From a virus (Duplodnaviria; Heunggongvirae; Uroviricota; Caudoviricetes), in the IMG/VR virus record IMGVR_UViG_2529292874_000013, positions 1 through 4,617 of that record: a DNA stretch of 4,617 nt. One strand, written 5' to 3'. The translations under genes were made by a program, and so were the position numbers. The notes under the pieces are model-generated. The model searched no databases and had not been told where the DNA came from. It saw nothing but the letters and a program-made list of their open reading frames with translations. The first letter of the stretch is position 1; the number at the start of each line of letters is the position of its first letter. Positions 1 to 4,617 of the stretch are shown piece by piece.

Positions 1-1477
1 CGAGCATACGGAATTCAACCGTCTGCTGGGGCTGGGGAATGAACTGCTTCAGCAGCGTCAGGGACTGGTGAATGTACCGTTACGGCTGCCGCAGGCCACC
101 CTGGATGATAAACAGCAGAGTGCCCTGACAAAAACAGAGCGTGAGCTGGCCCTGTCCAGACTGAAAGGGGAAGAAAAAGAGCGTGTCCGACTGGGGTATG
201 CGGCGGATGACCTCGGTTTTGTGGGTGATCCGTATCAGGAGGCGAGACAACGTTATATCAGTAATGCCCTGGAAGCCTGGCGCAATAACGAGGCGAATAA
301 ACCCAAATCCCGGGGTGGAAAATCAGAGACGGAAAAAGCGGAAGACAGTTTTTCCCGGCTGCTGAAGCAGCAGAAAGAGCAACTGGCACTGGTGGGGCAG
401 AATACAGAGCTGGCGAAGCTGAAATACCAGACAGCGCTGGGTGAACTGAAAACCCTGACGGAGATGCAGAAGCAGGAACTGCTGCGTAACGCGACCCTGA
501 TTGACCAGCAAAAAATCCGGGAACAGTTGCGATCCCGGGAAGAGACACTGAAGAATGAGAATGCGGCTGCGCGTGCGTCGAATGATGCTGAACTGCTGGG
601 GTACGGGCAGGGGGAGCGAGCCAGAGAACGCATGCGGGAGTTGCAGCAGATCCGCGACAGCTTCCGCCAGAAGGATGCGGACCTTCAGTCTCAGTATCAG
701 ACCGGGGATATCAGTGAGGATTTTTACAGACAGGCTCTGGCACAGAACGCGCAGTATCTGAGCGAACGCCTTAAGGACCAGGCAGTCTTTTATGCCGAAT
801 CGGATGTGCAGCGTGCGGACTGGCAGAAAGGGCTGCAGGAGGGATTCAGTAACTGGGTGGATAATGCGTCCGATTACGCCTCACAGGCAGCACAGCTGGC
901 GACGGAGGGTATCTCAGGGATGGTGAATAACATCACGGAGATGCTGAACGGAAATAAAGTGGAATGGCGCAGCTGGGCCTCATCAGTGCTGCAGGAAATA
1001 TCAAAAGTTCTTATGAATGCCGCGATTGTCAACGGAATTAAGACGGCGGCAAACGGTATGTCCGGTGCGGGAGGATTTCTCGGCAGCATTGGTGACTGGC
1101 TGGGCGGAGCGGTGGCCAATGCAAAAGGCGGCGTGTATACCTCGGCAAACCTGAGCGCGTACAGCAACAGCATTGTGGACACGCCCACGTACTTTGCGTT
1201 TGCAAAAGGGGCCGGGCTGATGGGGGAAGCCGGACCTGAAGCTATTATGCCCCTGACCCGGGCGGCGGATGGCTCGCTGGGCGTACGCGCCGTGGGCAGT
1301 ATGAACGGCAGTGCTGGTCTGGTGTATTCCCCGGTCTACCACATCGCCATTCAGAATGACGGGGCTAACGGACAGATAGGGCCGGAGGCGGCAGGCAGTC
1401 TTGTGCAGCTGATTGACCAGCGGGTGCAGGCGGTGATGCTGTCCATGCGACGTGACGGAGGAATGCTGAGTGGCTGA
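1..1477 (+). CDS. H: Tail length tape measure protein (lambda gpH-like), C-terminal portion; the 5' end lies upstream of the window
   Basis: The frame is open from the window edge (no stop in codons 2..67) to TGA at 1475-1477; the GTG at 68 used by the ORF track is only the first in-frame start inside the window. The N-terminal part is charged and Q/E/K/R-rich (coiled-coil-like), and the C-terminal part is Gly/Ala-rich, as is typical of tape measure proteins. It sits immediately upstream of M-L-K-I-J in lambda-like synteny, and its stop overlaps the M start. Confidence 0.85.
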   Translation, partial: EHTEFNRLLGLGNELLQQRQGLVNVPLRLPQATLDDKQQSALTKTERELALSRLKGEEKERVRLGYAADDLGFVGDPYQEARQRYISNALEAWRNNEANKPKSRGGKSETEKAEDSFSRLLKQQKEQLALVGQNTELAKLKYQTALGELKTLTEMQKQELLRNATLIDQQKIREQLRSREETLKNENAAARASNDAELLGYGQGERARERMRELQQIRDSFRQKDADLQSQYQTGDISEDFYRQALAQNAQYLSERLKDQAVFYAESDVQRADWQKGLQEGFSNWVDNASDYASQAAQLATEGISGMVNNITEMLNGNKVEWRSWASSVLQEISKVLMNAAIVNGIKTAANGMSGAGGFLGSIGDWLGGAVANAKGGVYTSANLSAYSNSIVDTPTYFAFAKGAGLMGEAGPEAIMPLTRAADGSLGVRAVGSMNGSAGLVYSPVYHIAIQNDGANGQIGPEAAGSLVQLIDQRVQAVMLSMRRDGGMLSG

Positions 1478-1811
1478 GATAAAAACGCTGCATCTGGTCC
1501 CGCGTGAAGGGATGCAGGTGAGTGAGAAGCCGTCGGTGGTGAGGGTGCGGTTTGGTGACGGTTATGAACAGCGCCGCCCCACAGGGCTGAATCCTCAACT
1601 GAAGACGTTTCAGGCGGTGTTCCGGGTGACGGATGAGTCAACCCGGCGCTGGCTGGATGAATTTTTATCCTGGCATGGTGGTTACCGTGCCTTTTTGTGG
1701 CGACCGCCGAAACATAACCGGACGGTGAGGGTGGTGTGCCGGGAGTGGAGCGTCACGGATAACGCCCGGTACAGTGATTTCAGCTGTACGATTGAGCAGG
1801 TGGTGAACTGA
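1470..1811 (+). CDS. M: Minor tail protein M (lambda gpM-like), 113 aa, GTG start
   Basis: The translation (VAEIKTLHLVPREGMQVSEKPSVVRVRFGDGYEQR...FSCTIEQVVN) matches my recollection of lambda gpM (VRFGDGY motif, C-terminal EQVVN). The GTG start at 1470 is preceded by a GGAGG Shine-Dalgarno at about 1456-1461 and overlaps the H stop by 8 nt. The stop TGA at 1809-1811 overlaps the L start as ATGA. Confidence 0.9.
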   Translation: MAEIKTLHLVPREGMQVSEKPSVVRVRFGDGYEQRRPTGLNPQLKTFQAVFRVTDESTRRWLDEFLSWHGGYRAFLWRPPKHNRTVRVVCREWSVTDNARYSDFSCTIEQVVN

Positions 1812-2508
1812 TGCAGAATATTCATGAAGAAAGCCTGAACGAGTCGGTTAAATCAGAGCAGTCACCGCGGGTGGTGCTCTGGGAAATCGACCTGACGGTG
1901 CAGGGCGGTGAGCGGTATTTTTTCTGTAATGAGCTGAATGAAAAAAGGGAGCCGGTGACCTGGCAGGGGCGGAATATCAGGCATACCCGATTGACGGCAG
2001 CGGCTTTGAGATGAACGGGAAGGGCAGCAGTGCCCGCCCGTCACTGACGGTGTCCAATCTGTTCGGTCTTGTCACCGGGATGGCGGAGGATTTGCAGAGC
2101 CTGGTGGGTGCCACGGTGGTCCGCCGCCGGGTGTATGCGCGTTTTCTGGATGCGGTGAACTTTGTGGCAGGCAATCCGGAGGCCGACCCGGAGCAGGAGC
2201 TGACTGACCGGTGGGTGGTGGAGCAGATGTCATCGCTGACGGCCATGACGGCCTCGTTTGTGCTGGCCACACCGACCGAGACGGACGGGGCGCTGTTTCC
2301 CGGTCGCATCATGCTGGCGAACACCTGTATGTGGACCTACCGCTCTGATGAGTGTGGTTACACGGGCGGGGCTGTGGCGGATGAGTTCGATAAACCCACC
2401 ACCGATATCCGTAAGGACAGATGCAGCAAGTGCATGCGCGGGTGTGAGATGCGCGGCATGGTGGCTAATTTTGGCGGTTTCCTTTCCATCAATAAACTTT
2501 CGCAGTAA
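1811..2508 (+). pseudogene. L: Minor tail protein L (lambda gpL-like) interrupted by an apparent single-base deletion near 1970-1975; either a pseudogene or a sequencing error
   Basis: ORF 1811..2014 (MQNIHEESLNE...VVLWEIDLT...GERYFFCNE...PVTWQGR) and ORF 2011..2508 (NGKGSSARPSLTVSNL...FGGFLSINKLSQ) together reproduce a full gpL-like protein. In the other frame from 1972 the sequence reads EYQAYPIDGSGFEMNGKG, which is the expected continuation after WQGR. The two halves sum to 698 nt, so adding one base restores a 232-aa ORF. The break lies in the G-rich stretch caggggcgg(g)aatat. Confidence 0.8.
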
Positions 2509-2518
2509 ATCCTGGTTT

Positions 2519-3262
2519 ATGACACAGACTGAATCAGCGATTCTGGTGCATGCCCGGCGGTGTGCGCCTGCGGAGTCGTGCGGCTTCGTGATAGGCACCC
2601 CGGAGGGCGAACGGTACCAGCCCTGCGTGAATATCTCCGCAGAGCCGGAGGCGTATTTTCGTATTGCGCCGGAAGACTGGCTGCAGGCAGAGATGCAGGG
2701 GGAGATTGTGGCGCTGGTTCACAGCCACCCTGGTGGTCTGCCCTGGCTGAGCGAGGCCGACCGGCGGCTGCAGATAAAGAGTGCACTGTCCTGGTGGCTG
2801 GTCTGCCGGGGGGAAATTCATAAATTCCGCTGTGTGCCACATCTGACAGGACGGCGCTTTGAGCACGGGGTGACGGACTGTTACACGCTGTTCCGGGATG
2901 CCTACCATCTGGCGGGAATTGATATGCCGGATTTTGAGCGTGAGGATGACTGGTGGCGTAACGGTCAGAACCTTTACCTGGACAATATGGCGGTCACAGG
3001 CTTTTACCGGGTGCCCCTGTCCTCTGCACAGGCGGGCGATATCCTGCTGTGCTGCTTTGGCGCATCGGTGGCCAATCATGCCGCCATATACTGCGGCAAC
3101 GGTGAACTGCTTCACCATCTGCCTGAACAACTGAGTAAACGGGAGAGGTATTCCGAAAAATGGCAACGACGAACGCATTCAGCCTGGCGTCACCGCCACT
3201 GGCACGTATCTGCCTTCACGGGGATTTGCAACGATTTGGCCGCCGCCTCAGCCTGTATGTGA
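2519..3262 (+). CDS. K: Tail tip assembly protein K (lambda gpK-like) with an N-terminal JAMM/MPN metalloprotease-like domain and a C-terminal NlpC/P60 cysteine peptidase-like domain
   Basis: ATG at 2519 starts MTQTESAILVHARRCAPAESCGF..., 10 nt after the L stop (2506-2508). A JAMM-type motif HSHPGGLPWLSEAD (H-x-H-x7-S-x2-D) is present, followed by an NlpC/P60-like Cys (GVTDCYTLF) and His (NHAAIY). The 2258..2518 part of the six-frame ORF is an upstream read-through that overlaps L in another frame. Confidence 0.88.
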   Translation: MTQTESAILVHARRCAPAESCGFVIGTPEGERYQPCVNISAEPEAYFRIAPEDWLQAEMQGEIVALVHSHPGGLPWLSEADRRLQIKSALSWWLVCRGEIHKFRCVPHLTGRRFEHGVTDCYTLFRDAYHLAGIDMPDFEREDDWWRNGQNLYLDNMAVTGFYRVPLSSAQAGDILLCCFGASVANHAAIYCGNGELLHHLPEQLSKRERYSEKWQRRTHSAWRHRHWHVSAFTGICNDLAAASACM

Positions 3263-3837
3263 ACACGGCAGCGGAAGCCATCCGGGCGCTGTCGTTACAG
3301 GTGCCGGGATTCCGCCGTCAGATGAACGAAGGCTGGTACCAGATACGTATTCGCGGTGAGGACACGGCACCGGAGGCGGTGTACGCCCGTCTTCACGAAC
3401 CTCTGGGTGAGGGGGCGGTCATCCATATTGTGCCGCGACTGGCCGGAGCCGGAAAGGGCGGACTGCAGATTGTGCTGGGGGCAGCAGCCATCGTGGGCTC
3501 TTTCTTCACCGCCGGCGCAACGATGGCGTTGTGGGGCGCAGCCCTGAGTGCCGGAGGGCTGACTGCCACCACGATGCTGTTCTCACTGGGTGCCAGCATG
3601 ATACTGGGCGGTGTGGCCCAGATGCTGGCACCGAAGGCAAAAACACCGGATTACCGCGCAACGGATAACGGTAAACAGAACACGTATTTTTCGTCACTGG
3701 ATAACATGATTGCCCAGGGGAACCCGATGCCGGTGCCTTATGGTGAAATGCTGGTTGGTTCACGACGGATATCCCAGGACATCAGCACCCGTGATGAGGG
3801 CGGAGACGGGAAAGTGGTGGTTATCGGGCGGGGATGA
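3160..3837 (+). CDS. I: Tail tip assembly protein I (lambda gpI-like), 225 aa
   Basis: The translation (MATTNAFSLASPPLARICLHGDLQRFGRR...AVIHIVPRLAGAGKGG...GNPMPVPYGEMLVGSRRISQDISTRDEGGDGKVVVIGRG) matches my recollection of gpI, with an N-terminal ubiquitin-like region and a C-terminal Gly/Ala-rich hydrophobic stretch. The start overlaps the K 3' end by 103 nt in a different frame. A GGAGAGG Shine-Dalgarno lies at 3142-3148. Confidence 0.9.
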   Translation: MATTNAFSLASPPLARICLHGDLQRFGRRLSLYVNTAAEAIRALSLQVPGFRRQMNEGWYQIRIRGEDTAPEAVYARLHEPLGEGAVIHIVPRLAGAGKGGLQIVLGAAAIVGSFFTAGATMALWGAALSAGGLTATTMLFSLGASMILGGVAQMLAPKAKTPDYRATDNGKQNTYFSSLDNMIAQGNPMPVPYGEMLVGSRRISQDISTRDEGGDGKVVVIGRG

Positions 3838-3875
3838 AAATAAAAAAATCCCGCAGAGTTAGCGGAGCTGCGGGA
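3837..3875 (-). terminator. Inverted repeat (stem 3849-3856 / 3868-3875, tcccgcag / ctgcggga) whose T-tract is on the minus strand (the + strand A-run at 3837-3848); a possible minus-strand intrinsic terminator or RNA structure
   Basis: An 8-bp perfect stem with an 11-nt loop is read directly from the sequence. On the minus strand the hairpin is followed by atttttttatttt. On the + strand it overlaps the Shine-Dalgarno of the small ORF at 3883. Confidence 0.35.
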
Positions 3876-3882
3876 GAGAACG

Positions 3883-4002
3883 ATGAAGATTAACGTTATG
3901 GAGTTATTTTTCAGGCATCAAAAAAGTAATGCAGCGTCATTATTGCGGCTACAGGCAATTGCCGGAAATGTGAAGAGTTTCAGAAATTTTATTCCGTCAT
4001 GA
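3883..4002 (+). CDS. Hypothetical small protein, 39 aa (MKINVMELFFRHQKSNAASLLRLQAIAGNVKSFRNFIPS), in the AT-rich segment between I and J
   Basis: ATG at 3883 is preceded by GGGAGAG (3872-3878) at a 4-6 nt spacing, and the ORF ends at TGA 4000-4002, immediately before a strong hairpin plus T-tract terminator. The region is visibly AT-rich compared with the flanking GC-rich tail genes. I recognise no homolog, and the ORF is too short for the sequence alone to establish that it is coding. Confidence 0.3.
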   Translation: MKINVMELFFRHQKSNAASLLRLQAIAGNVKSFRNFIPS

Positions 4003-4004
4003 CA

Positions 4005-4035
4005 CAGGCACCCTCCGGGGTGCCTGTTGTTTTCT
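4005..4035 (+). terminator. Rho-independent terminator: 9-bp GC-rich stem (caggcaccc / gggtgcctg), 4-nt loop (tccg), then T-tract ttgttttct
   Basis: Stem 4005-4013 pairs perfectly with 4018-4026, the loop is 4014-4017, and the T-rich run 4027-4035 follows directly. It sits 3 nt after the small ORF stop and about 40 nt upstream of the J start. Confidence 0.65.
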
Positions 4036-4061
4036 GGCATAAACAGATTCAGACATCAGAC

Positions 4062-4072
4062 AGGAGAGGGGG
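4062..4072 (+). promoter_or_regulatory. Purine-rich Shine-Dalgarno region (aggagaggggg) for J
   Basis: AGGAG and a G-run lie 6-11 nt upstream of the GTG at 4078, which opens the MGKGGGKGHTP-type N-terminus. Confidence 0.5.
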
Positions 4073-4077
4073 ACAGA

Positions 4078-4617
4078 GTGGGTAAAGGGGGCGGCAAGGG
4101 GCACACGCCGGTAGAGGCAAAGGACAATCTTAAGTCCACGCAGATGATGAGCGTGATTGATGCCATTGGTGAAGGGCCGATTGAAGGTCCGGTGAAGGGG
4201 CTGCAGAGTATCTGGTGAACAAAACCCCGCTGACGGACACGGACGGTAATCCTGTGATACATGGTGTGACAGCGGTCTGGCGCGCCGGGGAGCAGGAGCA
4301 GACACCACCTGAAGGCTTTGAGTCCTCCGGAGCTGAAACCGCACTGGGCGTGGAAGTGACGAAGGCAAAGCCGGTGACGCGCACCATTACGTCCGCGAAC
4401 ATTGACCGCCTGCGGGTCACCTTCGGGGTGCAGTCACTGTTGGAGACCACCTCAAAGGGCGACCGTAATCCCTCTTCTGTCCGACTGCTGATTCAGTTGC
4501 AGCGTAACGGTAACTGGGTGACGGAAAAGGATGTCACCATTAACGGCAAGACCACCTCGCAGTTTCTGGCGTCGGTGATTCTGGGTAATCTGCCTCCCCG
4601 TCCTTTAACATCCGGAT
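4078..4617 (+). pseudogene. J: Host specificity / tail tip central fibre protein J (lambda gpJ-like), N-terminal fragment running off the window, with an apparent frameshift near 4209-4215; either a pseudogene or a sequencing error
   Basis: From GTG 4078 the translation is (M)GKGGGKGHTPVEAKDNLKSTQMMSVIDAIGEGPIEGPVKGLQSI, then a stop at 4216-4218. A second frame from about 4212 continues LVNKTPLTDTDGNPVIHGVTAVWRAGEQEQTPPEGFESSGAETALGVEV...TSANIDRLRVTFGVQSLLETTSKGDRNPSSVRLLIQLQRNGNWVTEKDVTINGKTTSQFLASVILGNLPPRP to the window end. Both parts match my recollection of the lambda gpJ N-terminus (MGKGSSKGHTP...KDNLKSTQ...EGPIEGPV...AGEQEQTPPEGFESSG...SANIDRL...KGDRNPS). Restoring one base in atc(c)tgg rejoins the frames. 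Confidence 0.8.

Follow-up and report, generated by a model that had tools for sequence, protein, structure and literature searches.

The described systems closest to the DNA analysed here are phage lambda, with its tip attachment and host specificity protein gpJ, and the Stx-converting and other lambdoid prophages of STEC, including BP-4795, Stx2a_WGPS6 and those of O157:H7, whose tail genes follow one another as an H-M-L-K-I-J module. Lambdoid tail operons contain one programmed -1 frameshift, G/GT. Many of the lambdoid prophages in O157 are defective. Because of their homogeneity lambdoid prophages fragment O157 draft assemblies made from short reads (PMC7175801).

The window, meaning the whole stretch of 4,617 bp that was analysed, is the complete record AETX01000178.1 of the E. 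coli draft assembly GCA_000187285.4, and the record was matched via an exact-protein lookup of a 67-aa L fragment that is specific to a frameshift. The AETX assembly is presumably that of O157:H7 strain G5101, made by 454 pyrosequencing with Newbler. The neighbouring prefixes AETY, AETZ and AEUA belong to draft genomes from 2011 of O157:H7 strains representing its stepwise emergence (PMC3271280).

Gene content, copy number and relatives of the window

Pfam matches and the annotation of relatives identified the window as the tail-tip module of a lambda-like prophage, with the genes in the order H, M, L, K, I, J (Table 1). This gene order is the same as in the lambdoid prophages of STEC, and the Pfam families match for each product of the window. 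J sits directly after K and I, in agreement with the annotation of the relatives, and the start that PGAP annotates for J in the relatives is the position matching window 4078. Of J, whose complete frame would be expected to span about 1,130-1,160 aa, the contig includes the first 540 bases and ends there. The N-terminal FNIII-A_GpJ domain (PF24801) was matched on the repaired 180 aa of J with 97.8 bits at a cut-off of 27, and the same domain is on record for the product of 4215-4617.

Table 1. Genes, spacer and deletion sites of the 4,617-bp window
Feature	Coordinates	Strand	Basis or remark
Tail tape-measure gene (lambda H-like), 3' part, cut by contig start	1..1477	+	PF06120, PF09718; annotation of relatives
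Minor tail protein M-like gene, intact	1470..1811	+	PF05939
Minor tail protein L gene, split by a 1-base deletion into 1811-2014 and 2011-2508	1811..2508	+	ORFs, PF05100
Tail tip assembly protein K-like gene, JAB/MPN and NlpC/P60, intact	2519..3262	+	PF14464, PF00877
Tail assembly protein I-like gene, intact	3160..3837	+	PF06805; PGAP-style start 3259
I-J spacer with terminator-like hairpins, outside the frameshift	3838..4077	.	240 bp
J (tip attachment / host specificity), 5' end, two 1-base deletions, cut by contig end	4078..4617	+	PF24801
Deletion site 1	1970..1975	+	window GGCGG-AATAT; copies GGCGGCAATAT, GGCGGGAATAT or GGCGTGAATAT
Deletion site 2 (the one reported initially)	4209..4218	+	window AGTAT-CTGGTGA; copies AGTATTCTGG or AGTATCCTGG; resulting stop TGA 4216-4218
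Deletion site 3	4599..4607	+	window CGTCC-TTTAAC; copies CCTTTT or CCCTTT

The region is highly repeated in STEC. A complete genome can carry it at as many as 14 places, the median being 2, and the O157:H7 strains Z1486 and PV15-279 have 11-12 copies of it each, while the copies of the tail module in STEC are roughly 87-100% identical. The relatives stay highly similar beyond both contig ends, so that the contig consists wholly of repeat sequence. The contig ends were also considered as branch points of the assembly graph, which proved uninformative, since the relatives show no sharp divergence past either end. Compared with the lambdoid prophages of STEC, the whole window has 94-98% nucleotide identity and the J segment 99.5%. 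The best whole-window match among 5,426 complete genomes reached 97.9%, and the 99.5% match of the J part alone lies on a different prophage.

Two types of copy were distinguished upstream. Over positions 301-1500 the window and B-type copies, for example PV15-279 copy B, show 100% identity, and at positions 1-3 the contig begins with CGA where all B-type relatives have TCA, probably a contig-end effect. In the A-type copies (L002, L006 and L008) the tape-measure/M module is unrelated to that of the window (~50% identity, effectively non-homologous) and is joined to a near-identical L-K-I-J module; the boundary of similarity lies near window position 1800, just upstream of the first deletion. 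Some Stx phages have a 1.6-kb insert between L and K, which is missing from the window. In the Stx2a_WGPS6 sequence used for comparison (L010) this insert occupies 2708-4373, between the equivalents of window 2508 and 2519; it encodes an antirepressor together with a small regulator and has one hypothetical gene.

The spacer between I and J is 240 bp long, compared with about 60 bp in lambda. A strong, terminator-like hairpin with a 10-bp stem and a T-tract lies on the + strand at 4004-4027, ~50 bases before the start of J, and a second hairpin was located on the - strand at 3866-3850. An Rfam scan of the window, spacer included, gave nothing significant, and a 39-aa spacer ORF at 3883-4002 had no Pfam match. 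The spacers of the prophage copies form two families, 100% versus ~87% identical. A possible lead comes from a 2026 preprint, which describes the sRNA PasB as embedded in a phage structural-gene operon and takes NC_049945 as a representative phage (10.64898/2026.05.13.724894). Stx2a_WGPS6 is the GenBank twin of NC_049945, and over 3901-4200 its spacer shares 99.7% identity with the window.

Single-base deletions in L and J

The initial annotation reported that a J-like frame opening at GTG 4078 is interrupted near position 4211, and translation bore this out: the frame runs for 46 codons (VGKGGGKGHTPVEAKDNLKSTQMMSVIDAIGEGPIEGPVKGLQSIW) into TGA at 4216-4218, and J goes on (LVNKTPLTDTDGNPVIHGVTAVWRAGEQEQTPPEGFESSG...) in another open frame, that of position 4212, as had been claimed. 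It was further proposed that one missing base would rejoin the two parts. Base-by-base alignment revealed a single-base deletion at 4211 relative to every relative; all ten fetched relatives are longer by one base there (AGTAT[T/C]CTGGTG), and one added base therefore restores a single J frame. The absent base need not be the C originally proposed, as the relatives read either ATT CTG or ATC CTG. Both alleles were found within one genome, PV15-279, whose copy A has CC and copy B TC. The break in J is present in the deposited sequence and is not a chance pattern of open reading frames, since the repaired 180-residue N-terminus agrees with the intact J of strain UTAK-14 at every residue and has a strong Pfam match.

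The same alignment with ten relatives uncovered three single-base deletions that set the window apart from every one of them, one in L (after 1972) and two in J (after 4211 and after 4603), and no frame-changing insertions in the window. The initial annotation had counted two frameshifts; those in L and at 4211 were both recovered, and the total was too low by the one at 4603, which shifts the J frame a second time only 14 bases from the end of the window. Repair of the L deletion gives a protein of 232 aa that shares 231 residues with the intact L of strain Z1486 and matches PF05100 at 305 bits. No further decay was seen in the translated L and J after repair.

Searches of the 5,426 complete E. 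coli genomes with an 80-mer around each site covered 4,933, 4,453 and 1,792 homologous places, and none of the three deletions had a full-length exact match there; the best matches over the full length reached 98.8%, 97.5% and 98.8%, the 97.5% being that for 1972. The single record listed at ">=99%" in one of these searches must be the only one with under 80% query coverage, since any exact match over the whole 80-mer would have come out on top. A 35-mer spanning the 4211 deletion was without a match in the genome, viral and metagenome contig collections. The repaired 80-mer around 1972 likewise had no exact copy in the complete genomes, with a best match of 97.5%.

In a comparison of ten homologous copies, each of the three deletions lies on a column at which the copies vary, and the paired alleles are of one kind. 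Written run by run, the copies have GG.C.AA or GGG.AA at 1972 (alleles C/G) and the window GG.AA; at 4211 the copies have TT.C or T.CC (alleles T/C) and the window T.C; at 4603 the copies have CC.TTTT or CCC.TTT (alleles T/C) and the window CC.TTT. At each site, one allele thus lengthens one of two neighbouring runs and shortens the other, and the window takes the lower run length of both. Exact enumeration, in which each deletion was allowed to align anywhere within its run, showed that 15.2% of the single-base deletions possible in the window, and 19.7% of those possible within 1801-4617, hit a run with a polymorphic column, so that the chance of finding 3/3 deletions on such runs is P = 0.0035 to 0.0077. 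A first estimate of P = 0.001 was dropped, as it ignored the ambiguity of alignment within runs. With the stricter criterion that a base be swapped between runs, the fraction falls to 6.5% and P to 2.7e-4, a criterion that was set after the data had been seen. Positions 1-1900 are free of deletions, and the B-type copies are mutually identical there.

The length of longer runs was conserved. All 72 runs of at least four bases, including 25 of 5-7 bases, have the length found in the relatives, and the deletions sit in runs of 1-4 bases.

The distribution of exact proteins differs along the module. The exact M-like protein occurs on at least 1000 contigs and the exact 192-aa I-like protein on 17, the longest of them 5.3 Mb. 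The exact K protein was found on 2 contigs, the window itself and an independent TPA contig of 1,943 bp (L012; DAPKTI010000089.1, GCA_031559255.1), which has 97 differences from the window over ~1,943 aligned positions, 6 of them in K and all of these synonymous. At 1972, L012 is in frame and carries the G allele. The repaired L had no exact match among about 15 billion proteins, and the L cluster comprises 8,943 distinct members, many of them on only 1-2 contigs. Rarity of the exact proteins was considered as evidence of chimerism and judged weak, since K recurs in L012 and rare variants number in the thousands within the clusters.

Apart from the first two contig bases, one internal base of the window is private relative to the ten relatives, versus the three private deletions. 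This base is the A at 2998, where the copies have T or C; it is also absent from L012. The change is synonymous, at the third position of a K codon, and its column is polymorphic and balanced.

Possible origins of the deletions

The three frameshifts are not a new biological feature. The explanation preferred here, to which we assign a probability of about 0.68, is that the breaks at 1972, 4211 and 4603 are consensus errors from mixed reads of paralogous prophages and not a property of the phage genes. Reads of two or more prophage copies would have been merged into one consensus. If TT.C and T.CC were merged, the run lengths would average 1.5 and 1.5, and rounding down of both runs, or dropping of both half-occupied gap columns, would give T.C, one base short of either copy. 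The same arithmetic would turn CC.TTTT/CCC.TTT into CC.TTT and GG.C.AA/GGG.AA into GG.AA. Pyrosequencing assemblers average flow values into the consensus. In pyrosequencing, the length of one run is reported by one flow value (PMC3605598). Three of the circumstances in which such an artefact is expected were found: several similar copies, a short contig inside a repeat, and errors at columns that vary between copies.

The haplotypes around the sites were compared with those of the relatives. A switch occurs exactly at 1972, where sites 1946-1957 match carriers of the C allele and sites 1983-2001 carriers of the G allele, and further switches lie within ~60 bases of 4211 and 4603. Copy B of strain F3113, a real copy, matches continuously across 4211, and a haplotype junction is hence not required at that site. 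Any mixing would have been sporadic or local, plausibly at points where another copy becomes dominant. Among the balanced polymorphic columns of 1800-4617 that alter run lengths, the window reads 97 of 100 cleanly, which means that the contig is not a uniform 50:50 blend and that an error of this kind would have to be sporadic.

Two further tests of mixing did not discriminate. The alleles at the three sites are balanced at 6:4, 5:5 and 6:4 among the copies, and 36.5% of all polymorphic columns are equally balanced. Painting of the window as a mosaic of the ten relatives required 16 segments, compared with 12-42 for copies from complete genomes, which does not make the window more mosaic than real copies.

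A second technical explanation is sequencing or consensus error of a generic sort, unrelated to the mixing of repeats, with homopolymers under-called at low coverage (G3 to G2, TT or CC to a single base, T4 to T3). With the right allele at each site, the deletions can all be described as runs one base too short; all three errors are deletions and none an insertion, and the record is a short contig from an old draft assembly. Homopolymer errors should, however, cluster in long runs, and with 72/72 of the longer runs correct, plain homopolymer under-calling fits poorly. Generic error also leaves the position of 3/3 deletions on paralog-variable columns unexplained (P about 0.004-0.008). It is regarded as rather unlikely. 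An assembly artefact had been one of the two readings put forward in the initial annotation, and as such it is favoured by the present results; its specific form, systematic under-calling of homopolymers, agrees poorly with the run lengths. Paralog mixing and generic error taken together make a technical origin of the breaks highly probable.

The other initial reading was a decaying prophage, possibly with its tail genes under relaxed selection. Genuine pseudogenisation of this kind, in which a defective prophage truly lost one base of L and two of J and its tail assembly was disabled, is less likely again. It would be in keeping with the frequency of defective lambdoid prophages in O157 and with the closest J genes, which are annotated as frameshifted in the complete genomes of PV15-279 and F3113, and the deletions do stand in the deposited sequence, where they disrupt frames that are intact in homologs. 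Against this, the deletions are unique to the window contig among thousands of homologous places, with no recurrence in independent sequence, and signs of relaxed selection were not found, as repaired J and L agree with intact counterparts at all or nearly all residues and show no further decay. In ordinary E. coli mutation spectra, substitutions far outnumber 1-bp indels, and the excess of private deletions (three) over private substitutions (one, the first two contig bases aside) is the opposite of this and argues against real decay. The coincidence with paralog-variable columns would also be left unexplained.

A variant in which the deletions are real was considered as well, namely that they arose at heteroduplex mismatches during gene conversion between paralogous prophage copies. 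Such an origin would account for the haplotype switch exactly at 1972 as well as for the position of the deletions on paralog-variable columns, and is nevertheless very improbable. If true, it would amount to frameshift mutagenesis associated with recombination, preferentially inactivating tail genes where lambdoid prophages reside together in one host.

Programmed translational frameshifting or phase variation at 4211, for which the single programmed -1 shift known in lambdoid tail operons offers a precedent, was rejected as scarcely credible, because no slippery X XXY YYZ heptamer is found ahead of the stop, where the bases run G CAG AGT ATC TGG TGA, there is no repeat tract of variable length at the site, all relatives encode J in a single frame there, and two further such shifts are present on the same contig.

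Comparison with known systems

If consensus error from mixed prophage reads is the correct explanation, a caution follows for draft STEC assemblies: frameshifts on short contigs of multi-copy prophage regions can look like prophage decay, and both tallies of "defective" tail genes and inferences on prophage inducibility or host range that use such contigs would be misleading. A base deleted where copies swap a base between adjacent runs would then be a signature that flags such errors cheaply and requires no reads. Were the deletions real, the window would merely represent one more defective lambdoid prophage in a lineage already known for many.

The H-M-L-K-I-J modules of STEC lambdoid prophages, with which the window shares its gene order and protein families, differ from it in having the three single bases that the window lacks. 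The gpJ genes of O157:H7 strains PV15-279 and F3113 that PGAP annotates as frameshifted are the same gene in the same type of prophage and, like that of the window, have a disrupted frame. In contrast, their lesions lie elsewhere in J and in closed genomes, and neither carries any of the deletions of the window. In copy A of PV15-279 (L006), a GT duplication was located ~90 bases past the equivalent of window 4617 (GAAACAGTGTGCTACC versus GAAACAGTGCTACC), and J of copy A in F3113 (L008) is likewise annotated "frameshifted", unrelated to the sites in the window.

The closest counterparts of the deletions themselves are the errors that collapsed repeats and merged paralogs leave in draft genomes, including those due to averaging in flow space. 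Such errors usually show directly as excess read depth and mixed-allele reads. The window differs from such cases in that most of its variable columns are cleanly resolved. Common to both are a short contig enclosed by an element of several copies, indels confined to columns that vary between copies, each with the lower run length of both alleles, and long homopolymers that are unaffected.
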